64,000 nucleotides of DNA from a virus (lineage: Duplodnaviria; Heunggongvirae; Uroviricota; Caudoviricetes). The notes beneath the pieces were generated by a model. It was not told the origin of the DNA. It made no database searches and saw nothing but the letters and a program-made list of their open reading frames with translations. Below, in pieces: positions 1 through 14,000 of the stretch (position 1 is its first letter; the number at the start of each line of letters is the position of its first letter). The translations under genes were made by a program, and so were the position numbers. The stretch is taken from IMG/VR virus record IMGVR_UViG_2654587772_000002. One strand, 5' to 3'.

Positions 1-320
1 ACATCCCCCGTTTTATCACTCCCCGCAGAGATTCCGGTACCATTCAGCTTCTGGTTCAATGCCCGGACAAATGCCTGCATGGTCCGGTGTAACTGCAAAC
101 GAGTAGAACTAATCGCCTCCAATAAATCCGTAGCACACCAGTGGATCGGCGTGTCATAGAAGAACGTTGCCTCGATTTCCTCCAGGGTGTTGGATTCCGT
201 CATCAGATAGCGGTCCTGACCAGCCATTAATGCGCGATATTCATCATCAGTCACCGGCGGGGGAAGCACGTCAAGCCCCGGCTTAATCGTCACCCCTTTA
301 TTGATATTGAACTGTTCCAT
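1..320 (-). CDS. Hypothetical protein, partial (start codon at 320-318, runs off window start)
   Basis: ATG at 320 on minus strand opens an uninterrupted frame to position 1 (MEQFNINKGVTIKPG...); absent from ORF track because no stop in window. Confidence 0.35.
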   Translation of the reverse strand, partial: MEQFNINKGVTIKPGLDVLPPPVTDDEYRALMAGQDRYLMTESNTLEEIEATFFYDTPIHWCATDLLEAISSTRLQLHRTMQAFVRALNQKLNGTGISAGSDKTGD

Positions 321-321
321 G

Positions 322-933
322 TTAATTTCCTGCTTTCAGTTGCTTAAGACGGCGTTTGAGTTCGCCATTCCGTGCCTTTTCGTTATTGAGTCGGCCCGTC
401 TCCTTATCCAACTTCGCCCGCAAATCTGTGATCTGCTGTTGATTGAAAGACACCGAATTCTGCGCGGACTTATAAGCGGCAACCACCTGAGCATTCCGCT
501 GTTTTGCTTCTTGCAGGCGCTGAAAGTTGGATTTAACTGCCGGTTTCTTGTCTACCGGATTGGCAACACGCTTCGCTTTGGCGATCAGTGATTTCTGGAA
601 TTTCGCAGAGTTTTTGCGGGCCGCTTGCCCCATGACGGTACCAAGCGTCTTGATATCTGGCGACTGTGCGTTAGGAATAGATTTTCCATTCAGTTTCACA
701 GCCGATATATCACCAGTATCGTTTACCTGTATGGCAAGAATTTGTCCGTCGTTAAGAACCAGTTTTGCGGTTTTAACTTTAACGCCATCTTTCGTTGTTG
801 CGCGGTTGCTGGAGTCAACCTCAATTACCGTAACACCGGTTTTATTGATCGCCGCGATAAGGGATTTCAGCCCCTTTTCATTAACCTGGTCAAAATCGAC
901 CGTTGCATACTTATTTTTCGTCATCTGACACAT
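322..933 (-). CDS. Hypothetical protein with lysine-rich C-terminal coiled-coil
   Basis: 203-aa ORF; C-terminal heptad-like K/Q/E-rich region; no family recognised. Confidence 0.45.
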   Translation of the reverse strand: MCQMTKNKYATVDFDQVNEKGLKSLIAAINKTGVTVIEVDSSNRATTKDGVKVKTAKLVLNDGQILAIQVNDTGDISAVKLNGKSIPNAQSPDIKTLGTVMGQAARKNSAKFQKSLIAKAKRVANPVDKKPAVKSNFQRLQEAKQRNAQVVAAYKSAQNSVSFNQQQITDLRAKLDKETGRLNNEKARNGELKRRLKQLKAGN

Positions 934-1354
934 CCTGTGCGAGATTTATTACGTAACTTCTGCGGATTTGCTGAGTAACAGGGAAAATCCGATACAACGG
1001 GTTAATGAACGAGTCGCCATGCGTAACCATGACGTTGAAATGCCACAGTCGCTCTCCTTTACCCATATATTCAGTGGGTATGTACAACCATTCACTGTTT
1101 TCGCCCTGTTCAGCCGACGTCAGACAACGTTGTTCGCCTTCAATCACTGTCGTCGGCTTCTGAACATCGCGGATCCAATATCTGACCGTTGCGCCGCGCA
1201 AAAACGGGAATTTAGACCGGTATTTGAACGGCACCCGAATGAAACCCGGTTTAATTTCCACATCACCAAGTTCTAAATGCGTGATGTCCTTGCGTTTTAG
1301 CAAATAGCGATCGGCTAAGGCTAACGCAAGAACGCATACACCCCAGCCAATCAT
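911..1354 (-). CDS. Hypothetical protein with N-terminal hydrophobic segment
   Basis: 147-aa ORF, N-terminal GVCVLALALA hydrophobic stretch; overlaps neighbours by a few nt (operon-like). Confidence 0.4.
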   Translation of the reverse strand: MIGWGVCVLALALADRYLLKRKDITHLELGDVEIKPGFIRVPFKYRSKFPFLRGATVRYWIRDVQKPTTVIEGEQRCLTSAEQGENSEWLYIPTEYMGKGERLWHFNVMVTHGDSFINPLYRIFPVTQQIRRSYVINLAQDVSDDEK

Positions 1355-1680
1355 TTCCCACCTCCCTTTTTCACCAAACTTGTAAGAACATTCAGAATGC
1401 TATCGATATTCACTCGTTTCATCCCTGAAATCACCTCATGACCGTTATTGCTGGCTATCGTTACCATTAAGTACGTAATTGATAACTCCCAGCCTTCGTG
1501 TTGCCCCAATAGGTACGCCACCGCGCCAGCTGTCACTGCAACAAAGATCTCCGTAACCAATCCCAACAAGTTGCCAGACTGGCGACCATCTCGGACATCC
1601 ATCAGGAACGTGCCTATCCCACCAATTACTGAAAGCAGGAGCGCAATAGCAACTGGAGCTAATTCCTGTGTGTCAAGCAC
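1351..1680 (-). CDS. Small membrane protein, holin-like
   Basis: 109 aa, two to three predicted TM helices (LLSVIGGIGTFLM, IFVAVTAGAVAYLLG), charged C-terminus; topology typical of holins but family not confirmed. Confidence 0.4.
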   Translation of the reverse strand: MLDTQELAPVAIALLLSVIGGIGTFLMDVRDGRQSGNLLGLVTEIFVAVTAGAVAYLLGQHEGWELSITYLMVTIASNNGHEVISGMKRVNIDSILNVLTSLVKKGGGK

Positions 1681-1752
1681 AAGTTCCCTCCTACGTTGTC
1701 AGGAGGTAATGGTATGCAAAGTAACTTCTCAACCGGTCATGTTACTTGACAT

Positions 1753-1778
1753 CCTCCACGTCCTTTAGAGCGTGGAGG
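1753..1778. other. Perfect 8-bp stem / 10-nt loop hairpin immediately 5' of intron-like GTGCG
   Basis: cctccacg-tcctttagag-cgtggagg; 4 nt upstream of GTGCGCCC at 1783. Confidence 0.5.
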
Positions 1779-1782
1779 ATGT

Positions 1783-2640
1783 GTGCGCCCAGCATGGGCG
1801 CGATCTTGGAGGTGAAAGCCCTCCCGCGAGCTGACCACAGCGAGCGAAAGGAAGTGCAACTGCGTGAGGGCGGCTAGGCGTGGGGAGGAAGCACGGAATG
1901 AACCCGTGAGCCGATGAACAAGAATCGGATATGAGGCGCGATGGAGCAAGGCGAGCAGGCACATCACTGCGAAGCTTTCGTGACAAAGTCGCGTAGATCC
2001 GACGGTTGTGCGGGGAAGGATCGCGTTCTTACCTGGGGAGTTCTCGCCTCATGCCTGAAAGGGCAACGTCGTAAGACGGAGCGAGAAGTCAGCAGAGGCC
2101 GTAGTAGTCAGGACTCCGACGAAGGGCCGAACGAGAAGGAAAGCCAAAAGATATGACTCTTGACAGGACATTGCGTCAGAAGCCGGGGAAGCCCGGTACG
2201 GACCCGCATGCCGGGTGGTGTGGCAGGGGCGCAGCCTTGTGCTCCCCCCTATGCCGATCAAGCAGAACATTGTGCTGGGCCTCTGACGCATCTCCTTGAT
2301 GGTCTTGGCATCGTGCTTAAGTGGATTGGTGTCGTCTCTGATAGGCTCATGGAGGCAGAATGAAACTCAAAAATCCGGGACAGCACGCAAAACAGGCTGC
2401 ACAAAAAGCGCAGGTTGCGTAGGAGTGGAATCCCGCTCCCAAAAAATGGTGCAGAAGTTGCGGCAGTGGTCATCCGACGCACTGGAAAATAACAAACCCG
2501 CCGTGACCAGAATCGGAGGCCTGAGGGAGTGACCGTAAAACCGGATAACCCAGGCAGCAAATACCCGCTGGATGAGGCATGGTTCCGGCAGATAATACCG
2601 AAAACCGCCAGACACACTGGATAATCAGTAGAAATAACCC
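1783..2640 (+). ncRNA. Group II intron 5' fragment (ribozyme domains I-III plus decayed start of the RT/maturase ORF), truncated at the 3' side
   Basis: Begins GTGCGCCCAG as group II introns do; GC-rich, no long ORF on either strand; short frames near 2430-2640 read like RT N-terminal remnants (..NKPAVTRIGG.., ..RQIIPKTARH..); ends abruptly at AT-rich DNA. Confidence 0.45.
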
Positions 2641-2651
2641 ATTAAAATCAT

Positions 2652-2657
2652 TATAAT
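2652..2657 (+). promoter_or_regulatory. Candidate -10 element (TATAAT) for the acetyltransferase moron
   Basis: tataat about 22 nt upstream of ATG at 2679 in AT-rich leader; -35 is weak. Confidence 0.3.
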
Positions 2658-2678
2658 AATTGGGCACATTATTATATT

Positions 2679-3242
2679 ATGCTGAATAATAGAGACATGA
2701 ATATTAATGAACTTAAAGACTGTATTCACTATGAAGTAATCGGTAGCGAGCGTCCTTTCTCCTGGCGAAAGGCAATTGTTCGCGCAATAAAACATAGAAG
2801 AGTTCGTTATTTATTTTGGTGGCGCATAGCCAAATACCTTTTTGATAAAGGCGGATACTGTCGGAAGATTGCGGGGAAAATGGAACGTTTCATTCTTGAT
2901 AAATATAGTGTAACAGTCCCTTTAACTGTAAATATAGGGAAAGGCTTTGATATTTCTTATCTCAACGGTGTTGTTATCGGTCACAAAGTAACCATTGGTG
3001 AAAATTGTTCAATAAAACCAGGGGTAACTATTGGGCTACGTGGTGATTTTAATGATATGGATATTGTTATAGGACATAATGTGACCATTGGTTGTAATGC
3101 CACCATTCTTGGTGGCAAAGTGCGTATAGGAAACAATGTCACAATAGGTGCTCATGCATTGGTATTGCATGATATTCCTGATGATTCAACATTCATCACT
3201 AAATTTCAGTCTGAAGTTATCTGCTCGTCCTCTTGCACATAA
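2679..3242 (+). CDS. Hexapeptide-repeat (left-handed beta-helix) acetyltransferase; candidate surface-polysaccharide O-acetyltransferase moron
   Basis: Tandem [LIV]-G-x-x-x-x hexapeptide repeats ([53 protein letters not shown]); AT-rich; convergent with tfa, 3' ends overlap 37 nt. Confidence 0.75.
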
Positions 3243-3823
3243 CCCTGATTCATCAGCTCTGGCCATACGATATCCGGAGCTGTACTGGTGTCAATTCGAC
3301 TCACTAATACTCTGTATTTTCTCCAGGAATCCAGTTGTGAATTTTCCTCGGTTGTTGCTATTTCAAGATTAACTGCATCCTGCAGAATTGCGATGTTATC
3401 TGTTGCCTCCTGAATCAACCTTGCCTTTTTCTCTTCCGCTTCCCGTATCCGAAACAGTTTTTCTGCTTCCTCATCCTTCACCCAGGATACGCCGTCCCAC
3501 TTCTGATACTCCCCTGCTGGCGACAACCAGGTGACATTCTCTGGTAACGGTCCGAGTTCAGAAATAAACAACGCGTCCCCCGATGCCACGTCATAGACCG
3601 TTTTACCACGATGGTCTTCAACAATAATCCATGATTCATTTTCACTGTTAAAAACTGCCACAAAGCCAGCAGGAATTTCCGGTGGGGCGATATCTGTAGA
3701 ATTAGCTGGTAGCCCTGTATGAGGTGGAATATATGCGTCACCTTCACCAATAAACTCATTAGTTCCGGCGAGCAGGTTATAAATTTTTACAGTACGTGAT
3801 TGTTCACTCATTCTGAATGCCAT
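3206..3823 (-). CDS. tfa: Tail fibre assembly protein (lambda Tfa-like)
   Basis: N-terminus [48 protein letters not shown] matches lambda Tfa as recalled. Confidence 0.85.
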
Positions 3824-4713
3824 TATGCAAGCCTCACAATATAATTAAATGCGATGTTTTTAACGGTGTTTTCCGAGTTACCAGCAGCGTTAACGGTGAT
3901 GGTGTGTCCATGTGAACCAATCGCAACAGAGTGCGTATGAGCGCCAATATCAACTGTATGTGCATGCGCCCCTGCACTTGCAGCGGTGCCTGATACTGAG
4001 TGGGTGTGTGCACCAGAAGAAGGCACAGTTCCATTCCCCACCACAGTGCCGCTTGATGAGCCATCAAGCCAGTCGAAATTCATACCGCCACCATCTGGTC
4101 TCCTTAATGGAACGGTATGAGTATGTGCGCCAGCACTATTTGCAGTACCAGATACATTGTGGGTATGTGCACCTGTGTTATTCGTTGATTTAGTACCGTA
4201 ATCAAACGAAGATGTGGTTTTCGTACCCAAATCCGTATTGGATGCGCTGGCGCTGTGGGTGTGCGATTTAATGCCATCCTGTTCCAGAGACAATACGTCC
4301 CGACCACTGGCGGGTTTGCCCTTGATTGTCCAGCCACGCATATCCGGGATCACGCCTGACGGATAAGCGGCTGCAAGTTTCGGGTATGCAGATTTGTCAA
4401 AAGTCTGTCCCTGCATCAGGGCGTAACCAGACGGCACAGTATCTGATGGCCACGGATGCGGAACACCAACAGGAAGGACCTCAATATCCCCGGAACCATC
4501 AAACGAAACGTTATTAATTTTACGGGCTGTTTTCAGCTTTGTAGCCGTTGAGGCATTGCCGGACAGCTCACCAGAAATGCCACCAACAACTGTTAGATCA
4601 CCAGTTATTGTGCCGCCTGAACTTTCCAGTTTTTTAGCAACATCACTCTTAATAGAGTCGATTTCTTTTTTCAGATTAGTTATATCTGCTGGTATCGTTG
4701 TCACTGTTGCCAT
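3823..4713 (-). CDS. stf: Side tail fibre C-terminal module (lambda Stf-like) with its own start
   Basis: [52 protein letters not shown] ... GAHTH repeats ... [31 protein letters not shown] match lambda Stf C-terminus. Confidence 0.8.
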
Positions 4714-4722
4714 ATTAATTCC

Positions 4723-5001
4723 TTACGCCCATTCCCGCAGCGGTTGTTCTAATTGAACTTCAAAACCATCAAACATTTGTTGTTTCAAACTGTTGTTTAA
4801 AATACGAACATTAACGAAGAAGCCATCATTTTTAATCACTGTTGGTTCTTCGTTCTCGCCGTTTGGTATTTCGGTATATGTAACACCTACAACATCAAGA
4901 AGAATGTTGTTTTGCAGCTCTTCATTATCGTGCCAGGATATACTCTCTAAAAAAGAGTCGTATTCTGCCCTGTCTCTGAATTTCAACGTGATATCTTTCA
5001 T
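4723..5001 (-). CDS. Hypothetical protein; possible chaperone for the upstream fibre
   Basis: 92-aa ORF immediately downstream of the large fibre gene (1-nt stop/start overlap); no family recognised. Confidence 0.3.
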   Translation of the reverse strand: MKDITLKFRDRAEYDSFLESISWHDNEELQNNILLDVVGVTYTEIPNGENEEPTVIKNDGFFVNVRILNNSLKQQMFDGFEVQLEQPLREWA

Positions 5002-7901
5002 TAAATAACCTCAGCCATTTGTTGGTCTGTTAATGCTTTATGCCATATTCTGAAATTTCTGATATGACCAAATAAATGACGTAACCCTGCTGTAGTCTGG
5101 CCTCCAATACGGATGGTTGCAGAGTTCTGAATATAGGACCATGTCGTCTTTGTTTCGCTGGATATGCGCCCGTTACTTACTGAGCACGTAGACTGATCTG
5201 ATTTTACACGCATCCCCATAACCATTTTTTCAAGCAATGCGTTTTCGTTTACCCGTCTGTTAGCTCCTCCAATATCGCAATAAGGAAATCCGTCGTAATC
5301 TGCTGAAGAACCGAAGCCAAGAATAATAGCCGCTCCGGTTTGATGACCGCCGGTATCAAAAACACGTGGCGCTGCATTTGGCGTTTTATACCAGTTCTTA
5401 TGTACCTCACAAAGAACCGTAAAAGGAAGATTATAAAGATTATTATTAATTGGAACTGTAACTATATCGCTTGCGCGGGTAGCCGCCGTCGTTCCCGAGA
5501 TAATAAAAGATGATGCACACGAACCATCCTCAACCTGAGGGGTGGACAGATAAATATAGTCTCCAGATATGGTTGCTCCGCCCTGCTTAGGAGAATACTG
5601 TATCTGAGATCCTATTTTTAACTCATCATCAATTGCCTGGATTGTTGCCTCTGCAAAAATCCATCCGGTAGCTTCGTCCTTTCTGACTCTCGCTGTAATC
5701 CTTGAGGCCGCGCCACCTGTCATATTAATTTCAAGCGTTTGTGTATCAATATATGCATCACCAAGAAAAGTTGTTGCACTACCGTCATATTTATCAAAGC
5801 GGATACGTAACCTTACCTGTCGTTCTGTTTTAAAACGACATGAGGTTGTCACGTACTTGTTATCGCCTGAAACATCAACTGACTTTGTAGCAGCAATTGA
5901 TGCCATATTAATGGCTGACGTTTGCCCAATCAGAGAATCGTTACAGACAAACTTTCCATAGGTAAAACCAAAACTATCCGTCCCGGTTTCGGGAACATCC
6001 ATATTTGACGAGCGCCCCCAACTGGCAGGGTTTTCCGAATTGAGCATGTAGTTTGTTCGTTGTCCCTCAATAAGCAGACCATCACGTTCAAATCGTGGCT
6101 CGTCAATGGCAGCCTCTGTCAGCACACCAGATTTATTTATATAGGTTGCTTTCGATGCGCGTTTAAACTTAACAACCTTGTCGCCAGGCATTGTTATTTC
6201 GTCGTCGCCAATAACAATCTTTTTATATGATGGAGAAAAGCCCGCAATCATATCCAGCGAATCGTTAAACGGTATCCACACATCTGGCAGCGGTTGAATA
6301 ATCTTCCTGGCATCCTCCAGTGACAATGCTTCGACATCCGAAGCTGTTAAAGAAATATCTGCCGAACCGTCAAATGAAACGTTGTTAATCATCCGTGCTG
6401 TTTTTAATTTCGTTGCGGTGTCGGCGTTCCCCATCAGTGCGCCGGTGATCCCGCCGTTGAAAGTCTGGCGTGCACTCCATGTGTTAGCCGTGCTCAACAG
6501 GGGGATCTTTTCACCGCTTGTGCCGAGTTCTCTTAAACCAAGGTATTGGATAACAGCAAGGACGCTTGTTTTGGACAGAATATCGCGACCGACTGACGTT
6601 AAGTCAGTCTGAGAAACAGTGTCTGTACCGGTAAAGTACGGCAGTTTATTTGCGCCTGTAGCAAGACCAGCAAGCGCGGTTAAAGTTGCATCCAGAGGCT
6701 GTTTGCCTGCCAGCGCATTTGTCATTGTTGTCGCAAAGTTCGGGTCATTACCAAGTGCTGCGGCAAGCTCATTCAGGGTATCAAGAGCTTCTGGTGATGA
6801 ACCAACCAATGCGGATATGGCAGCTCTTACATAAGCAGTCGTAGCAATCTGCGTATTATTTGTGCCCTGCGCAGCCGTAGGCGCAGTAGGGACTCCCGTT
6901 AATGCAGGGCTTGCCAAAGGCGCTTTGAGGGCTAGGGCATTGTTGATAGTTGTGCTGAAATTCGGGTCGTTATTGATCGCAGCAGCTATTTCTTTAAGCG
7001 TATCCAGTGTGCCAGGTGCACCGTTGATAAGTGCCGTTATAGCTGACTTAACAAAGGCTGTATTTGCGATCTGCGTGCTATTTGTACCTTGCGCTGCCGT
7101 CGGCGCGGTTGGCGTTCCTGTCAGACTCGGGCTTTCTATTGGCGCTTTGGTATCAGCAAGACCTTTTACAGACTTAACGGCTTTAGGGGTAGCCGCCATT
7201 GTTTCGCTGTCGCTGTTAGTTTCGCTACTGAGCTGAACTAATCCCTTTTGCGTTGTGCTTGCATCCTGTGCCGTATACTTGCTTTTCGCCAGATCGTAGG
7301 CTTTTTTAGCTGCCAGCGAACTTGCAGCAACATCACTTCTGCTACTGGTTACAGAGTCTGAAATATCAATGCCGATCGTGCGGTTAATACGCTCGGATGT
7401 ATCAATCATCTCCTGGGTAATGGCTGATACGCCAGCAGGGATATTCACCGTACAAACAAGCAGCTCTCCATCTCCTAACTGATATGAATCGGTATAGGTT
7501 CTGGCAACAAATTCAGCCGCATGAATATGTGACGCGGTATTAACCTGATAGGTATCCTCTCCAAGGAGGTATCTTCCCTTCAGCACAATTGCATATTTCT
7601 TGCCTTCACTAAGTGCAAGAGAAATATCCTTACGGTGCCGAATAGTTACCTGGTAGAATTCACCAATATCCACTGACGCAGCGCCAGCAGTTTTATCACC
7701 ATCCACTGAGGTGATTAACAGGTTCATACCACCGCCAGGCTTCGGCAGGAAACCGGCATAAAACCCAGGATCAACAATTCCCCTGAATTTTCGGTTTAGC
7801 GCGGCTGACAGATATGGTTCGTGGTATTGCACATCAGCCACCAGAGCCAGTGACTCGGGCGATGGGTAAGTAACTGATGTAACAACTGTAACGTCATTCA
7901 T
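5001..7901 (-). CDS. Tail fibre protein with Stf-type collagen-like repeats and a distinct C-terminal (lectin/LamG-like?) receptor-binding domain
   Basis: Repeated PL(A/D)SPxLTG(T/V)PTAPTAAQGTNxTQIA(N/T)TA(F/Y)V units and GLVQLSSETNSDSETMAATPKAVK as in lambda Stf; start set at internal ATG (MNDVTVV) just after the upstream stop; ORF-track start 7988 overlaps the previous gene. Confidence 0.8.
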   Translation of the reverse strand: MNDVTVVTSVTYPSPESLALVADVQYHEPYLSAALNRKFRGIVDPGFYAGFLPKPGGGMNLLITSVDGDKTAGAASVDIGEFYQVTIRHRKDISLALSEGKKYAIVLKGRYLLGEDTYQVNTASHIHAAEFVARTYTDSYQLGDGELLVCTVNIPAGVSAITQEMIDTSERINRTIGIDISDSVTSSRSDVAASSLAAKKAYDLAKSKYTAQDASTTQKGLVQLSSETNSDSETMAATPKAVKSVKGLADTKAPIESPSLTGTPTAPTAAQGTNSTQIANTAFVKSAITALINGAPGTLDTLKEIAAAINNDPNFSTTINNALALKAPLASPALTGVPTAPTAAQGTNNTQIATTAYVRAAISALVGSSPEALDTLNELAAALGNDPNFATTMTNALAGKQPLDATLTALAGLATGANKLPYFTGTDTVSQTDLTSVGRDILSKTSVLAVIQYLGLRELGTSGEKIPLLSTANTWSARQTFNGGITGALMGNADTATKLKTARMINNVSFDGSADISLTASDVEALSLEDARKIIQPLPDVWIPFNDSLDMIAGFSPSYKKIVIGDDEITMPGDKVVKFKRASKATYINKSGVLTEAAIDEPRFERDGLLIEGQRTNYMLNSENPASWGRSSNMDVPETGTDSFGFTYGKFVCNDSLIGQTSAINMASIAATKSVDVSGDNKYVTTSCRFKTERQVRLRIRFDKYDGSATTFLGDAYIDTQTLEINMTGGAASRITARVRKDEATGWIFAEATIQAIDDELKIGSQIQYSPKQGGATISGDYIYLSTPQVEDGSCASSFIISGTTAATRASDIVTVPINNNLYNLPFTVLCEVHKNWYKTPNAAPRVFDTGGHQTGAAIILGFGSSADYDGFPYCDIGGANRRVNENALLEKMVMGMRVKSDQSTCSVSNGRISSETKTTWSYIQNSATIRIGGQTTAGLRHLFGHIRNFRIWHKALTDQQMAEVI

Positions 7902-7912
7902 CAAGCATATCC

Positions 7913-8347
7913 TTATGCTATAGTCGTGTTGATGGCCATAACTGCGGTATATGTTTTTCCCACATACAGCGAGTCTTCCTGAACACAAATAATTGCGATG
8001 GGCTTATTCTCGTTATCCAGAACAACCAGAGTGTTGAATGGATAGTTTTTCCCTTCCTGCAACTGGCTTTGATCAAGGTCCATTCGGACAGTAATTATCC
8101 CGCCAGAGTAGGTTGGGACGAGGTTGATGGTGCAAAATTGACTGGTCAGTTCTGCCAACTCGAAAGTCTTTGGCAGTTCTCCAATGTCATAAGTACCATC
8201 TTCATTTTTGGTAACCAGCGAACTGGTGCCGAAAACGGCCTTGCTGATTAAAAATCGAGAGCCTTTGTTAATGGACGATTCAGCGCGTCGCTGATAGTAA
8301 TAATCCAACAACTGACTCTTATAGAGATTTGTTGAGACGTCAGACAT
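7913..8347 (-). CDS. Hypothetical virion-associated protein
   Basis: 144-aa ORF in co-directional operon immediately upstream of the tail fibre. Confidence 0.4.
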   Translation of the reverse strand: MSDVSTNLYKSQLLDYYYQRRAESSINKGSRFLISKAVFGTSSLVTKNEDGTYDIGELPKTFELAELTSQFCTINLVPTYSGGIITVRMDLDQSQLQEGKNYPFNTLVVLDNENKPIAIICVQEDSLYVGKTYTAVMAINTTIA

Positions 8348-8425
8348 GATTTTCCCTAATCAATGTTGTGAAGCCTCATTGTAAGAGAAGTAACTTGTCA
8401 CCCCGCCCTGCGGACGGGGTAATTG

Positions 8426-9265
8426 TCAGGCATCGCTATCCAGCAGCAAATCATCTGCGCGGGAGCGATCAAACGTAGGCGTTGCTTTCACAATAGTGCC
8501 GCCCGGCGTTGCAGTGATCGGGGCACTAATCGACGTAACTCCGGCAAGCGAAGTTGTATCCGAAGTTTCAAACCAGCAGTACGCTTTTTCGGTATCAGAA
8601 ATCTCGTTCAAAGTGATCATGTCGGCCTGTTCATTTACAACAACCGACAAATAGAGCGTAAGCCCATCAAACACTATATGCAGTGGCAGTAGAGGCTTTA
8701 CGAACTGATTAAACTTTCTGAGAATTTCTTCTGTAATTGCGGACTGATCTATCGTGCCAGTAATACCCATTGTCCTGGCCAGGTCGTTTATGGGAATACT
8801 GATCATCCCTCTGGAAGTCAGAAACATCTCGCCGAATGTGCCGCCAGTAGTCTCCAGTGTGCTTTCTGGTATTAGAACTGTGCCATAGGGATGACGCTCA
8901 AGGTCCACCGGTGCATATATCGGATCCCATAAAACAGAAATACCGTTAAATTCGCGGTAAATTGTCTGGTTTATAGGACGTTCAGTTCCCTTAAAGTGGA
9001 TCTCATCAAGCCGCTGTTGTAACAACATCGGAACGGAAGATGAGTTCGAGGTTCTGATAGTAAAGAACTGGCCAAGTTCATTTGTCCTGGTCTCCAGATC
9101 CTCCTTGCTCATGGAGAAAATAGACTTCCGGTTGGTAATTCGCTCCAACCATGGGTCAACAAAGGTGTCCATCATTGACTGAACCAAATCAGCCAATGAT
9201 TTATAGAGCAATGACTTTTGCTTAGCTGATGTAAGCCGGTTATTAAACCAGGAACGCTGCATCAC
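8426..9265 (-). CDS. Hypothetical virion-associated protein
   Basis: 279-aa ORF; 4-nt start/stop overlap with upstream gene. Confidence 0.4.
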   Translation of the reverse strand: MMQRSWFNNRLTSAKQKSLLYKSLADLVQSMMDTFVDPWLERITNRKSIFSMSKEDLETRTNELGQFFTIRTSNSSSVPMLLQQRLDEIHFKGTERPINQTIYREFNGISVLWDPIYAPVDLERHPYGTVLIPESTLETTGGTFGEMFLTSRGMISIPINDLARTMGITGTIDQSAITEEILRKFNQFVKPLLPLHIVFDGLTLYLSVVVNEQADMITLNEISDTEKAYCWFETSDTTSLAGVTSISAPITATPGGTIVKATPTFDRSRADDLLLDSDA

Positions 9266-10695
9266 TCCTCCTCATACGAAATATTAAAGGTGGAGCTTTC
9301 TGTATCCAGATAAACGAAATCGTAAAAGCCGTTGGACTCATTCCACTCGACAAATTCCAGATAAAAGTCGCGGAAATAACCCAGCGTTTCGATAAACGCC
9401 CAAACGTCTTTTTTCTTAATCAGGATGTACTTTCCGACGCGGTTCGGATCAAAGAAAGTTGAGTCGCGCCCAAATTTTGTTTCCAGTGCCGACTTCAGCT
9501 CATCGGTCACATTCTCAATGGTCAGGCTTGCCGATATCCGTCCGGTGATGGTTATCTTAAATGGTAGTTTTCTGACCTCTTTATAAGAGAATTTCTTGTT
9601 CAGTTCATTCGGTACCTTCTTAAAGGCAGTCAGGATCATTTCTTCAAGCTCTGACTGGCTTTTATTTGGATGCCATCCTGAAATAAATATCTTATTGATA
9701 TTCTGAACATTATAAGCACCATCTAATTTCTCTTGCTGGCCTTCGCCCCATGCCTTTACCCAGGACAGCCCCGGGATGTTACGAACCAGAAAATACGTAT
9801 AGTCCCCGCCCCATACGACCTGATCATCATAGGCAAGGTAATATTGTGCACGGTTACGTGTGATCTCCGTTGTTTCAGCATCGGTACCTGCGGTTATAGG
9901 TGTCGTTGTCTTAACTGAAATCAAATTAGCTAAATCAGCCGCAGAATCGACAGGCGTCAGGTTTTGGCCAGCAACCAGGGTTATATCGCCGTTGGTGCAC
10001 CATACCTTAAGCGTAATTGTCGAACCTTCTGGCGGTATTTGCCCAATTAGCCCATCGCCGAATCGAACCCCCAACTGCTCGGATGGTTTATAAAACTCAA
10101 CGTAGACCTGGCTTTTACTACCGGCTAACCGGAACATAGTGCTGGAAGACCACTGCGTGGTCTTCCCATCGGTTGTCACGAATACTTCCAGCTTATAGCA
10201 GACAGCAGTAAGAGCCTTTGATAACACGACTTCCAGAAATTCTTTGGCTGCCGTAACGGTATATGTCACCTCCTGGATTTCCAACTGTGCCACTTCTACC
10301 GTACCGGTGCCGTCAACCAACCTGCATACATCCATAGTCATGTAAGGGTACTGGTCGTCAGATATTAAAGGCATGTTTTTGGGGATTACCGCTGGGGCAT
10401 CTTCACTTGTGGCGGTGATCTCAATCATCCCCGATGACGGTGTTGGCTTGGTACCAACATAACTGTTCGTTTCTGCCGCAGCCAGGATAGAGGAACGCCG
10501 CGTCGCGGTCGATATAAAGCCTTCAGCCAGCGCCGCATCGGCATACTGAAAGCACCTGTAGACAATCTGGGTAATAAACAATGTCAGCATCGAGACAAAT
10601 TGAGAGCCGACAAACTTCGACCAGAATGAATCTTTCTCGACAAGCTCTTCAAACTCTGCACGAATACTGTCTTTAGTCGGTGTTGTTTTACTCAT
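9262..10695 (-). CDS. Hypothetical virion-associated protein (477 aa)
   Basis: Long clean ORF, 4-nt overlaps with both neighbours (translational coupling). Confidence 0.4.
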   Translation of the reverse strand: MSKTTPTKDSIRAEFEELVEKDSFWSKFVGSQFVSMLTLFITQIVYRCFQYADAALAEGFISTATRRSSILAAAETNSYVGTKPTPSSGMIEITATSEDAPAVIPKNMPLISDDQYPYMTMDVCRLVDGTGTVEVAQLEIQEVTYTVTAAKEFLEVVLSKALTAVCYKLEVFVTTDGKTTQWSSSTMFRLAGSKSQVYVEFYKPSEQLGVRFGDGLIGQIPPEGSTITLKVWCTNGDITLVAGQNLTPVDSAADLANLISVKTTTPITAGTDAETTEITRNRAQYYLAYDDQVVWGGDYTYFLVRNIPGLSWVKAWGEGQQEKLDGAYNVQNINKIFISGWHPNKSQSELEEMILTAFKKVPNELNKKFSYKEVRKLPFKITITGRISASLTIENVTDELKSALETKFGRDSTFFDPNRVGKYILIKKKDVWAFIETLGYFRDFYLEFVEWNESNGFYDFVYLDTESSTFNISYEEE

Positions 10696-11051
10696 AGCAC
10701 CACGTCCTGTGTGATAGTTATATCCCTGATACGAATGGATATTTTCAACTTATCAAAAGCATCTCCCTCGGCTACTGACAAGCCAGAAATCGGTATGTCA
10801 GGTAAATCTACCGTCAGTTTTTGCAACAGCATTGCCTCAACCGCAATTTGAACATGCGACAAGTTGGTCGGTTCGTGTTTAAACTGCGGTAAAACATTGC
10901 CCCATGACGGATCTCCGTATACCTCACCCTGATAAGTGTTTAGCCACTCATATAAACGAGCGCCCCAGGCCTCCTCCTGGGACTCATACGTTTTTACGCC
11001 GGATAACTCCAGCGTCAGCAAAGGATCAATTTCGTTATTGTTGGCCATCAA
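10692..11051 (-). CDS. Hypothetical small virion protein (119 aa); baseplate gp25/GpW-like is a weak possibility
   Basis: Size and loose pattern resemblance only; not confirmed. Confidence 0.35.
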   Translation of the reverse strand: MMANNNEIDPLLTLELSGVKTYESQEEAWGARLYEWLNTYQGEVYGDPSWGNVLPQFKHEPTNLSHVQIAVEAMLLQKLTVDLPDIPISGLSVAEGDAFDKLKISIRIRDITITQDVVL

Positions 11052-14000
11052 TCAACTCTCGCGTAGTCATTCATCAACGGATCATCAATTGACAGTGGCA
11101 CCGTGCGCATAACGCCCGGTTGAGGCGTGCTGACCTTTACGACAGTTCCCTGGCCTTTCGCCGAGTCTTTAGTGTGCTCTTCAATCCTGGCAAGCAATGA
11201 GGTCATCTGCGCAAACAGCCGCTTCGTTTCACCATCAAGTGAAACGGTATTATCAGCCAACTGCATTGTCGGCTTGGCACCAGAGCCGCCAAGGTCACTA
11301 ATAACCTGTCCGTCTATCTGCATACGACCGGTTGGTTGCTGCAAATCGTTGGCGGCAGTCGTCACCTGGGACGTGGAGGCTGGTTGAGGAGAGTTATTTG
11401 AGCGCATTCCCCGGGCATTAATGAGTTTGTCATACAGCCCATCAATCCCCATTTGTGCACCGAGTTGGTCAAAGTAACTTGAGTTGTTTGCTACCGGACG
11501 TGCCTCTTCAACTGGCATAGGTGTATCAACATACACATTGCCAGCAGCCGTTGCGGTTCCCCTTCCTCGTGCACGTTCTTCGAGGGTTCCCTGAACGACT
11601 TCCCGACGCATCCCCCGACCATTCATGAATTTGTTGACCAGATCGTTAACGCCAACAGCATTACCGATTTTGTCTACCAAACCGCCTTTCTCAAACGGGC
11701 TATCACCAGGGGTAAACGCCAGACCAGTAGACTGATCGATAACGGCGTTATCAGGCAGTGGTCCCCTCACTCCATATTGCGCCCCACCCTGTGCTCCTGC
11801 TCCAGGTGTATAGATTTCACCACCTAAATAGCGAGCACGATGAGTATTGACCTTGATCGCGTACTCACGGTTTTCTTTCGATAAGTCACCTGTGCCTTTT
11901 TTCCACTTATTGATAGTGCCAAACCCAGCATTATATGCAGTGATGGCCTCGTTTAAGTCTCCATTGGCTTGCTTCAGATACTTGCTCATGAGAAGAGCCG
12001 CAGCTTCTGCCGATTTCACAGGATCAAATGCATCCTGTTCCGATATCCCTGTCTCTTTACGAGCAATACTCGTGAACTGGAACATCCCGAGTGCGCCACC
12101 ACTTAACTTTCCATCTGGTGATCTTGTAAGCGGAGACTTTGCGTTAGGATCCCCTCCTGATTCAGTTGCCGCAATCGAGTAAAGAGTGCCTTCAGGAAGG
12201 CCATATTTATTCTCTAGTTCAGCAAAATACGGAGCCAGCTTATCCAGATTTGCCTTACCTTCAGCGCCAAGGCTTCCGACTTTTACATCTAAGTTGCCAT
12301 TGTTGTAGGTATCCGCAGCTTTCTGAATGTCATTCCTAGTGCCAGTAGTATTAAGCGACGATGATGATGAGCTATTTTGACCAATAGCATTATCAATTTT
12401 CTGCAACGCTCGATTGCCCGTTTCTACGGCATTTGCATTGATAATCTGATTGGCAGTTTCTTTAACTGTTTTATTGCTATCTTTCGCCGTCTCTAGGGAT
12501 GCATTTACAACACGAGTGACAATATTAGCCTTTTTAGGGGTATATTCAGTCTTAGGAGCATTGTCCTCCTGACTTTCTTTAGCTGGTGTTTTTAATTCAG
12601 GTGTAACCTCTTTCGCATCCGCTTTGTTGACTAGCTTTGATGCAACCCAGGCCACAGGGGTGCTCTGAACAGCGGCATCGGCAACCTTACCAGGAAGCTC
12701 TTTTGCGGCATTCCATAGATTACTACCAGCCTCTTTAATGTATTTTCCCGGGTTCTTAATGAAATCAATTGCACTATCAATTGCATCACTGAAAACCTTT
12801 TTCAGGTTATCGACAGTAAAGAAGTCTTTGATGGCGTCTAATTTTTCGTTCAGACTCTTGGTTGTGTCACTGAACCAGGCTGAAATAGCATCGCCAATCT
12901 TGGCTGTGTAATCGTTGAATGTTGTGGATATGGTGTCACCAAGGTTAGAAATATATGTTTCTAAATTGGTAATCCCACTATCAATGGCCTGGGCAATACT
13001 TTCCGTCGAAAATGATTGCAACATATTGCCGATATCCTCAAATCCAAGTGATTTGAGAACGCCACCAATGGCATTGCTAATACCAGATACCAGTCCTCCC
13101 ATATCGAGAACGTTAGCCAGTGTATAAGCCGCTTTTTGCTGAAAAGATGGATCTTCCCCATCCTTAAGCCCAAAGGTCCGACGTTGTGCTTCTGTATCAT
13201 TCCAACCGGTTACCGCATCATAGATACCTCCAGCCACCGTGCCGACTAGCGGAATTGCGCGTAAAGCCCCCTTTGCAAAAGCCTTAACACCTAGTTTCTC
13301 CAATCCCTTAGTTGCAAGTTTTCCGGCACCGCGAGTAGCCAATTCGCCAGCTTCTTTGGCAGCAGCTTTTTTCCCACCAAAGCCCAATAAGCTTGCAACT
13401 TTTTTTATACCTAAAGCGCCTAGTGCCATCGAGCCAACTTTCTTTAGTGCCCCACGGCAAAAAATAAGGGAAGCAATACCACCGGCCCCCTTCCCTAACA
13501 GGCTAAATAATTTGGACAGCAAGCCGCCCTTCTTTTTCCCGGTGTTTTTGGCTATCTGATCAAGGGCGCTGAGAATCTTGTCATTGCCCTCTTTAATTTC
13601 GCTGGTCTGATCCTGAAGTTCCTGAACCGTCCGTTTTTGGGTGTTAACCTGAACGACATCGGCACTACTTTGCGATTTACGCCTAAAAAAACCTTTTCTA
13701 CGGCTGTTATCGTCATTGCCACGAATCACATCGGCAATTGACTTTCTGGCACCATTAAGCGAACCGCCAACTTCTTTTGATATTCCGCCAAGCTCCTTTC
13801 CTGCTGCCCACAATGGACCAGCAACGGCATAACCTAAAGCATCGACGGCACGAGTCTCTGAAGGGTTACCTATGCCTTCAGCTACTTTTGACAGTTTTTT
13901 TAATAAACCCGATTCAGCATTTAGACGCTCATCATCCTCTTTGCGCCTAGCTTTTTCAGCACGTTCAGCACGGGCATCTTCCGCTGCGGCCTTACTCCCT

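Follow-up and report, generated by a model that had tools for sequence, protein, structure and literature searches.

A candidate two-part tail fibre in the R-S operon of a P1-like phage-plasmid

We asked whether a 296-amino-acid (aa) tail-fibre gene that follows a much longer fibre gene is the orphaned end of an older fibre or a second fibre in its own right. The gene lies in a 64-kb window (64,000 nucleotides (nt) of the virus record IMGVR_UViG_2654587772_000002; all positions refer to this whole stretch unless another record is named), in which five closely packed genes occupy 3206-8347 on the minus strand: a homologue of P1 R, a long fibre (fibre-1), a gene for a 92-aa protein, the 296-aa fibre (fibre-2) and tfa (Table 1). 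We identify the locus as the R-S tail-fibre operon of a phage-plasmid that is P1-like (Punavirus). A first-pass annotation had described a long fibre with a new C-terminal domain and a chaperone, inserted into an ancestral stf, whose former C-terminal part would have persisted as a separate open reading frame (ORF). The list of ORFs bears out the four minus-strand ORFs and their places, except that the long fibre, given as 967 aa up to 7988, has 966 aa from its ATG at 7901, position 7988 being the limit of an upstream TTG extension. As judged by sequence comparison, a lectin-ended fibre, a 92-aa protein and a second fibre form a conserved and widespread three-gene module and not an accidental split of stf. 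Fibre-2 itself is most likely not a leftover but a complete gene of known architecture, encoding a functional second fibre segment.

The second fibre and its foreign start

The distal part of fibre-2 is what had been reported for it, a classical Stf-type C-terminus followed by tfa. Residues 78-296 match the tip of T4 gp37 (PDB 2XGF, E=1.8e-82), the protein contains a Collar domain (PF07484), Phage_fiber repeats (PF03335) and seven HxH motifs, and the tfa product belongs to PF02413 (Caudo_TAP, E=2.3e-39; PHROG 105). The order of a Collar, HxH, gp37-like tip and a Caudo_TAP Tfa is that of lambda Stf-Tfa and T4 gp37; unlike in lambda Stf or T4 gp37, the tip sits on a 77-aa N-terminal piece and not on a long shaft. 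By homology, Tfa would be the assembly chaperone cognate to this gp37/Stf-type tip and would aid its folding. The lambda-type N-terminal tail-attachment domain PF08400 was absent from the 296-aa protein in the Pfam search; fibre-1 bears the constant part of P1 S (Sc) instead.

Where does the start of fibre-2 come from? A plasmid of strain MINF_9A (L003) carries one uninterrupted 1181-aa fibre, followed by tfa and an acetyltransferase gene, and matches the window at ~98% over 1-4582 and 6355-12088. The last ~250 aa of its fibre, together with its tfa, are 96-98% identical to the fibre-2 tip and tfa of the window (98% nt identity for tfa, with 9 synonymous and 3 non-synonymous differences). These matches on both sides of the foreign segment uphold the earlier view of the locus as a mosaic that arose by exchange of a receptor-binding module at a conserved motif. 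A continuous fibre with a near-identical tip and tfa also favours the idea that a receptor-binding domain and its chaperone were inserted into an ancestral stf, with the 296-aa ORF as an orphaned C-terminus whose expression or silence is accidental and which is not incorporated into virions. So does the fact that PGAP calls such ORFs N-terminally truncated pseudogenes, and a copy in E. coli ST2747 (described below) suggests that the region is able to decay. However, the L003 homology extends only to nt 4582, inside fibre-2, and neither the gene's start codon nor its ribosome-binding site nor its initial 44-74 aa are L003-type stf sequence; 4493-4713 is covered by homology to another plasmid, from strain AREA_494 (L002). 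The start and N-terminus of fibre-2 thus come with the foreign cassette, which means that a gp37/Stf-type tip was grafted onto a pre-existing distal-fibre N-terminus. Moreover, the first ~15 aa are invariant in the second-fibre genes of unrelated phages, the cognate tfa has been kept intact, and in relatives a homologous fibre-2 inverts together with fibre-1. Given a start that arrived with the cassette and membership of a conserved second-fibre family, the claim that an old stf C-terminus was left behind is probably wrong, and we regard an orphaned remnant as unlikely.

The exact 296-aa protein was found on 14 contigs from independent assemblies (NCBI, ENA and Logan), with the ORF intact, which again argues against a remnant, and at least 8 contigs among those listed have the same gene order around it. 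These contigs also bear on the possibility that a frameshift or a mis-join, introduced in sequencing or assembly, has split what is really one long fibre gene. The RefSeq record of ST2747 does differ by a 1587-bp indel at the same place, but a complete and conserved 92-aa gene, and not a frameshift, separates the two fibres, and besides the independent contigs the homologous loci of many phages have the identical arrangement. A frameshift joining the 296-aa ORF to upstream sequence, which the first-pass annotation had considered, is contradicted by the intervening gene and the independent contigs, and an artefact is barely credible.

The ST2747 element (L001, NZ_CP007393.1), a P1-like element that sits in a RefSeq 'chromosome' record, is 99.98-100% identical to the window. 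It is without 1587 bp (window 4933-6519), between 5-bp GTGCC microhomologies, with fibre-1 and the 92-aa gene destroyed; this gap reflects a true deletion or else a collapsed assembly. Pseudogenes labelled 'tail fiber protein, incomplete, missing N-terminus' by PGAP stand at L001 6824-7474, L103 6384-7037 and L104 737-1576. L001 is near-identical there to the window, in which a full ORF opens with MATxTxIP 9 nt behind the 92-aa gene. For L103 and L104, to judge from the gap alone, the distance to the 92-aa gene would accommodate a fibre-2 N-terminus.

A three-gene module in unrelated phages

Is the arrangement of the window peculiar to it? With a profile of the 92-aa protein, 83 loci were retrieved from IMG/VR and GTDB genomes. 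The upstream fibre ends in ...HLFGH(I/V)RNFRIWHKALTD... (the ...RIWHKALTD... tail) at 81 of the 83, and the downstream gene starts with M[ATV]TxTxIPxDIxxLK at 81 of the 83. The spacer between the 92-aa gene and the second fibre measures 9 nt at nearly all surveyed loci and 12 nt at a few, and consists of the stop codon and a GG(A/G) Shine-Dalgarno sequence. In the window, the fibre-1 stop and the ATG of the 92-aa gene overlap by 1 nt (TAATG), and the fibre-2 ATG follows 9 nt past the stop of the 92-aa gene, with the Shine-Dalgarno sequence AAGGA lying within TAAGGA. Scans for internal promoters and terminators in the cassette were no richer than those of shuffled sequence.

By tblastn, homologues of the 92-aa protein are present in 183 cultured phage genomes, which include T5-like, T1-like, lambdoid, Queuovirinae-size, Dhillonvirus and rV5-like phages. 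We inspected the full trio in lambdoid Tritos, T5-like L6jm, IrisVonRoten, a P2-like plasmid and P1-like plasmids. The order in Tritos is J, an Stf homologue with the same end domain, a 93-aa homologue, a 346-aa fibre, a small gene and PinR (in L005 1485-2596, a 97-aa gene and then a PinR-type recombinase gene follow the trio). In Salmonella phage L6jm it is LtfC, a 786-aa fibre, a 92-aa homologue and a 576-aa fibre. A 47.8-kb P2-like myovirus-type plasmid (L104, NZ_JBSWBF010000004.1) has the trio behind the baseplate genes gpV, W, J and I, and shows the module grafted onto P2 H-type fibres as well. The second fibres share their N-terminus only. Beyond it, at least 9 architectures can be told apart among the distal parts, and each solves its folding in its own way: some tips carry an S74 intramolecular chaperone, others are Mu S'-like or P1 S-like and go with a U-type chaperone, and the window combines a gp37/Stf-type tip with Tfa.

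The closest described counterpart is IrisVonRoten (Bas32), whose genes bas32_0022, bas32_0023 and bas32_0024 are the same trio in the same order and with the same 9-nt spacing. In that phage Gp24 has been modelled as a distal fibre on the proximal fibre Gp22, the C-terminus of Gp22 forms a protruding galectin-like domain that has been proposed as an additional receptor-binding domain (RBD), and the Gp12-like RBD of Gp24 was grouped with the RBDs of O16-targeting phages (PMC11990801). The window has all three sequence features of such a Gp22-23-24-type module. The C-terminal 432 aa of fibre-1 are 65% identical to aa 363-796 of Gp22; the overlapping 92-aa gene encodes a protein 54% identical to Gp23; and the fibre-2 start, which is followed by a tip and its chaperone, shares the MxTxTxIPxDIxxLK motif with the N-terminus of Gp24. 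The two systems differ in their proximal anchors, which are the P1 S constant part (for a myovirus baseplate) in the window and the T5 Ltf N-terminus in IrisVonRoten, and in their distal parts, a gp37/Stf-type tip that needs Tfa as against a T-shaped Gp12-like and T5-like dual RBD with an intramolecular chaperone. The cassette on P1-like plasmids was not described in the literature that could be searched.

Fibre-1 itself has Phage_fiber_2 repeats and a weak Laminin_G_3 match in Pfam. The repeats, first described as collagen-like, are those of the P1 S constant part. The foreign C-terminal module comprises ~430 aa (aa 535-966), not the ~350 aa first given; within it NCBIfam recognizes NF048003 (GTA_spike_fiber, 'phage head spike fiber') at aa 611-811, and the foreign end has 93% nt identity with the Stf gene of Tritos. 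A conservation profile drawn from 15 non-redundant loci separates three parts: the junction block (aa 537-626) is sharply conserved, the beta-sandwich core (aa 627-941) varies, and the last ~25 aa form a strongly conserved tail (HLFGHIRNFRIWHKALTD). An AlphaFold2 (AF2) model of the module, made from a shallow alignment, reached a mean pLDDT (predicted local distance difference test) score of 50 and was confident only for module residues 90-253, which form a beta-sandwich; Foldseek returned weak matches only for this lectin-like model (an E217 baseplate chain and legume lectins), which were not used as evidence. In two sister P1-like contigs, L095 and L101 (2789-5713 in each), a 974-aa fibre-1 carries a strongly diverged allele of the core (~aa 620-930) between a conserved junction block and C-terminal tail, and fibre-2 is 100% identical to the 296-aa protein of the window despite this different core. 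The fibre-1 domain has thus been swapped independently of the distal fibre. A variable core between conserved blocks is the pattern expected of an exchangeable binding domain, for which this part of fibre-1 would be a candidate.

The 92-aa protein matches only PHROG 1361 among the libraries searched (E=1.6e-35), a family annotated as 'unknown function', and nothing in Pfam or NCBIfam. Its AF2 model (pLDDT 86) is a small alpha/beta fold, for which the structure search gave no informative neighbour. The earlier view of this small ORF as the chaperone of the new domain found no support. An exhaustive profile search of 1.84 billion proteins yielded 61 representative proteins of this type; the family is small, and the detected members all come from phages and prophages. 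A single-sequence word-index search found just 14 clusters of homologues, and the profile-based locus search and tblastn were needed to find the others. The ratio of non-synonymous to synonymous substitution rates (dN/dS) of the gene is 0.05-0.16. Whether 9 nt or, as at a few loci, 12 nt lie between its stop codon and the fibre-2 ATG (window 4711-4725), the two genes are always in the same frame. We considered stop-codon read-through across this in-frame spacer, which would fuse the 92-aa protein to fibre-2, and judge it unlikely, as the stop is TAA and the Shine-Dalgarno sequence accounts for the spacing; the constant frame is probably a by-product of that spacing.

The lost inversion switch and the origin of the cassette

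Next we asked how the module came to stand in a P1 operon. In megablast comparisons, window 6397-9560 is 95.7% identical (nt) to P1 Sc-R-16, and 1-1740 is 98% identical to P1 darA-hdf-lydB-lydA. R lies inside the former match, which spans Sc, R and gene 16, and the corresponding gene of sister contigs carries PF26881 (Phage_P1_tail_fiber_R). Between these two blocks, 1741-6396 stands where P1 has lydC, cin and the 4.2-kb invertible C segment (Sv', U', U, Sv). Features of the P1-type switch that are present are the S constant region with gene R upstream and one cix site, which agrees at every position with the 26-nt cixR-region sequence of the P1 alignment and is the sole match in the 64 kb at <=3 mismatches (0 expected by chance). 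Within the 64-kb window there was no second cix or second core match, no cin homologue (tblastn of P1 Cin gave a 25-aa match only, E=0.46) and no convincing paired inverted repeats, which rules out an invertible segment in the window. The first-pass annotation was therefore right in reporting neither an invertase nor flanking inverted repeats, and its statement that this is not a Mu/P1-type invertible segment holds for the window. It does not hold for the history of the place: the locus is a decayed P1 C-segment site, now a fixed cin-less recombinant, and the cassette is invertible in relatives. That the long fibre is P1 S, and that an intact orphan cix persists in it, had been missed. In the R-S-U operon of P1 and P7, R, Sc, the cix at the Sc/Sv boundary and the lydA and gene 16 flanks are 95-98% identical to the window. 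Unlike P1 and P7, the window is without cin, a second cix and an alternative arm, and has the lectin-like end, the 92-aa gene, fibre-2 and tfa in place of Sv-U. The C-segment/tail-fibre region is a hot spot in P1-like plasmids, and cin is often lost (PMC6906374).

The motif NNVSFDGS occurs in both fibres, as had been noted. Its surroundings in fibre-1 and fibre-2 are 63% identical over 51 aa (E=5e-14), whereas the DNA of the two copies is only roughly 70% alike (by eye, from the alignment) and contains no long exact repeat. The motif is therefore a conserved fibre motif and not the product of a recent duplication in situ. On the same grounds, in-situ duplication or a switch by homologous recombination between the two copies was ruled out. 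Near copy 1 the homologies have staggered borders: that to P1 ends at 6397, that to the L003-type fibre at 6355, and that to Tritos begins at 6296.

The relatives show what the cassette does when the switch is present. The AREA_494 plasmid (L002), 97% identical to window 4493-11755, shares its long fibre and its 92-aa gene with the window; its second fibre, of 365 aa, agrees with the window fibre-2 in the first 74 aa but has a Mu S'-like tip, with a U-like chaperone. Behind this cassette come an oppositely oriented U'/Sv' arm and cin, and two cix sites (925-950 and 7039-7064 of that locus) make the four-gene cassette one arm of a ~6.1-kb segment. We constructed in silico the junction expected after inversion of this segment and used it as a search query. 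In the predicted flipped form Sc-Sv' reads through in frame. Two complete plasmids contain the reciprocal junction (cin-cix-lectin arm) at 99.4% over 1100 nt, and a third record matches 98% of the query at 93.4%. In p2022H047-2 (L105, 8390-15900) the 92-aa, fibre-2 and tfa proteins are identical to those of L002 and lie flipped 'off', with the Sc-Sv' fusion 'on'; the fibre-1 end protein is likewise identical between the two plasmids, and their segments are flanked by two cix beside cin. As both orientations occur in complete plasmids with identical proteins, the cassette is switched on and off as a unit in nature, in these P1-like relatives.

Most simply, these homologies would be explained by recombination of an L002-type plasmid, with the cassette inside its C segment, and an L003-type cin-less plasmid that contributed the gp37-type tip. 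Similarity to L003 runs up to 4582 and similarity to L002 starts at 4493, which would place the crossover within 4493-4582, in the second motif region; the L003 homology resumes at 6355, in the first motif region.

A probable two-part fibre and its surroundings

How might the products work together? We consider it probable that a two-part fibre has replaced the Cin-invertible Sv/U//U'/Sv' segment, with fibre-2 docked on fibre-1. The sequences show the gene order, the homologies, the chimeric junctions, a trio that is conserved from one phage group to another and, in relatives, a cassette that inverts as a unit. How fibre-2 is joined to fibre-1, what the 92-aa protein does and which receptors are bound we infer as follows. 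A P1 late promoter upstream of R would give one transcript of R, fibre-1, the 92-aa gene, fibre-2 and tfa, with translational coupling, in particular of the 92-aa protein to fibre-1. Fibre-1 trimers would be anchored to the baseplate through their P1 Sc part (this anchoring is established for P1), and their distal end would present the ~90-aa junction block and the variable galectin/LamG-like beta-sandwich domain. Fibre-2 trimers, folded with the help of Tfa, would dock by their invariant N-terminal ~15-25 residues onto the fibre-1 end, directly or via the 92-aa protein. The outcome would be a jointed or branched fibre with two potential receptor sites, the lectin-like domain of fibre-1 and the gp37-like tip of fibre-2.

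Alternatively, fibre-2 could be a functional but separate short fibre on another part of the tail or baseplate, and the 92-aa protein a mere chaperone of the lectin-like domain of fibre-1. In keeping with this, many fibre chaperone genes overlap the stop of their fibre just as the 92-aa gene overlaps that of fibre-1, the predicted fold of its product is a small stand-alone alpha/beta domain without fibre-like features, and the attachment of fibre-2 to fibre-1 is one that we infer. However, P1- and P2-like myoviruses and T5-, T1- and lambda-like siphoviruses, whose tails and baseplates are wholly different, all bear this N-terminal motif, and the sole partners common to those phages are the C-terminal module of fibre-1 and the 92-aa protein. 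An independent short fibre is in our view improbable, and docking of fibre-2 on fibre-1 is the reading that we prefer.

Composite fibres of this kind have precedents. The long tail fibre of T4 (gp34-gp35-gp36-gp37) is built of end-to-end segments that are encoded by separate genes; a small protein sits at the joint, and the tip is of the gp37 type. The homology of this fibre with the window lies in the tip alone, and for a possible joint role of the 92-aa protein it offers an analogy only. The lateral fibres of siphoviruses may comprise one, two or more proteins (PMC8594841). In the branched fibres of the T5-like phages DT57C and DT571-2, LtfA has a phiEco32 gp14-like region and LtfB a gp15-like N-terminus, with no small intervening gene described (PMC4728585, PMC10713586). 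Compared by description only, DT57C LtfA/LtfB shares with the window the principle of an anchorless second fibre that is carried via a short conserved N-terminus and gives two receptor specificities. One step further, the 92-aa protein and the fibre-2 N-terminus might be a universal 'socket and plug' on fibre-1, through which myoviruses and siphoviruses alike would carry an exchangeable second fibre. The P1 lineage would then have replaced an either/or switch by the simultaneous display of two sites, and the 92-aa protein would be a gp35-like joint and not a chaperone. We offer this extension tentatively and with some doubt.

Several points weigh against a docked two-part fibre. The presence of fibre-2 and the 92-aa protein in virions, and their binding to fibre-1, are deduced from sequence, and the tight synteny could reflect co-transfer of linked genes and not physical contact. 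The attachment in IrisVonRoten is an AlphaFold-Multimer prediction, and the 92-aa protein is not discussed there (PMC11990801). Among the sampled loci, a gp37-type tip on such an N-terminus occurs only in the lineage of the window, and RefSeq labels several fibre-2 genes as N-terminally truncated pseudogenes. The ST2747 element has, if its gap is real, lost 1587 bp, and the cassette would thus be dispensable for plasmid maintenance. Finally, the low dN/dS of the fibre-2 tip (0.15), of tfa (0.10) and of the 92-aa gene is weak evidence of current function, as the differences could largely predate the recombination.

Taken as a whole, the locus is a fairly ordinary case of modular host-range evolution, a two-part lateral-fibre module of known type placed on P1 S instead of the C segment. 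It corrects a pseudogene-type annotation: the short fibre genes that follow lectin-ended fibres belong, as complete genes, to a conserved family of distal fibres. P1-like phage-plasmids, frequent carriers of resistance genes in E. coli, are able to trade their S/S' tips for a kit shared with T5-, T1-, lambda- and P2-like phages, and carry this two-part kit either inside the invertible segment or fixed. The genetic tractability of P1 makes it convenient for studying how the distal fibre attaches and what the 92-aa protein does, and knowledge of the attachment could serve the engineering of host range in transducing particles.

Table 1. Positions of the tail-fibre genes, their sequence elements and the adjoining acetyltransferase gene in the 64-kb window
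Feature	Position	Strand	Remarks
R, homologue of P1 R, 144 aa	7913..8347	-	Late tail-fibre operon gene no. 1; PHROG 2032
Fibre-1, 966 aa from ATG	5001..7901	-	P1 S constant part (aa 1 to ~453) and foreign end (aa 535-966)
Orphan cix site	6528..6553	-	Encodes IQYLGLRE (fibre-1 aa 451-458); Sc/Sv boundary
NNVSFDGS copy 1	6363..6386	-	Fibre-1 aa 506-513
Foreign proximal-fibre end module	5004..6299	-	Junction block, variable core, conserved tail
92-aa gene	4723..5001	-	PHROG 1361; homologue of IrisVonRoten Gp23
9-nt spacer	4714..4722	-	Stop codon and GGA = fibre-2 Shine-Dalgarno (TAAGGAATTAATATG)
Fibre-2, 296 aa	3823..4713	-	Candidate N-terminal 'plug' aa 1-15; gp37/Stf-type tip aa 78-296
NNVSFDGS copy 2	4492..4515	-	Fibre-2 aa 67-74
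tfa, 205 aa	3206..3823	-	ATG overlaps fibre-2 stop
Hexapeptide-repeat acetyltransferase, 187 aa	2679..3242	+	EpsC/CysE/WcaB-like, below all curated cut-offs; PHROG 2154

Two neighbours of the operon complete the picture. On the plus strand, 1741-2678 (especially 1864-2127) is a GC-rich stretch in the place of P1 lydC-cin that contains group II intron D1-D4 RNA fragments (RF02001, 95.5 bits; RF01998, 46.8 bits). The ORF list holds no long ORF there able to encode an intron protein, and the stretch looks like an ORF-less intron remnant; L003-type plasmids match it too. The acetyltransferase gene is convergent to tfa, with 37 nt of overlap at the 3' end of tfa. It may be a gene for surface-glycan acetylation (lysogenic conversion) that lies beside the fibre genes.

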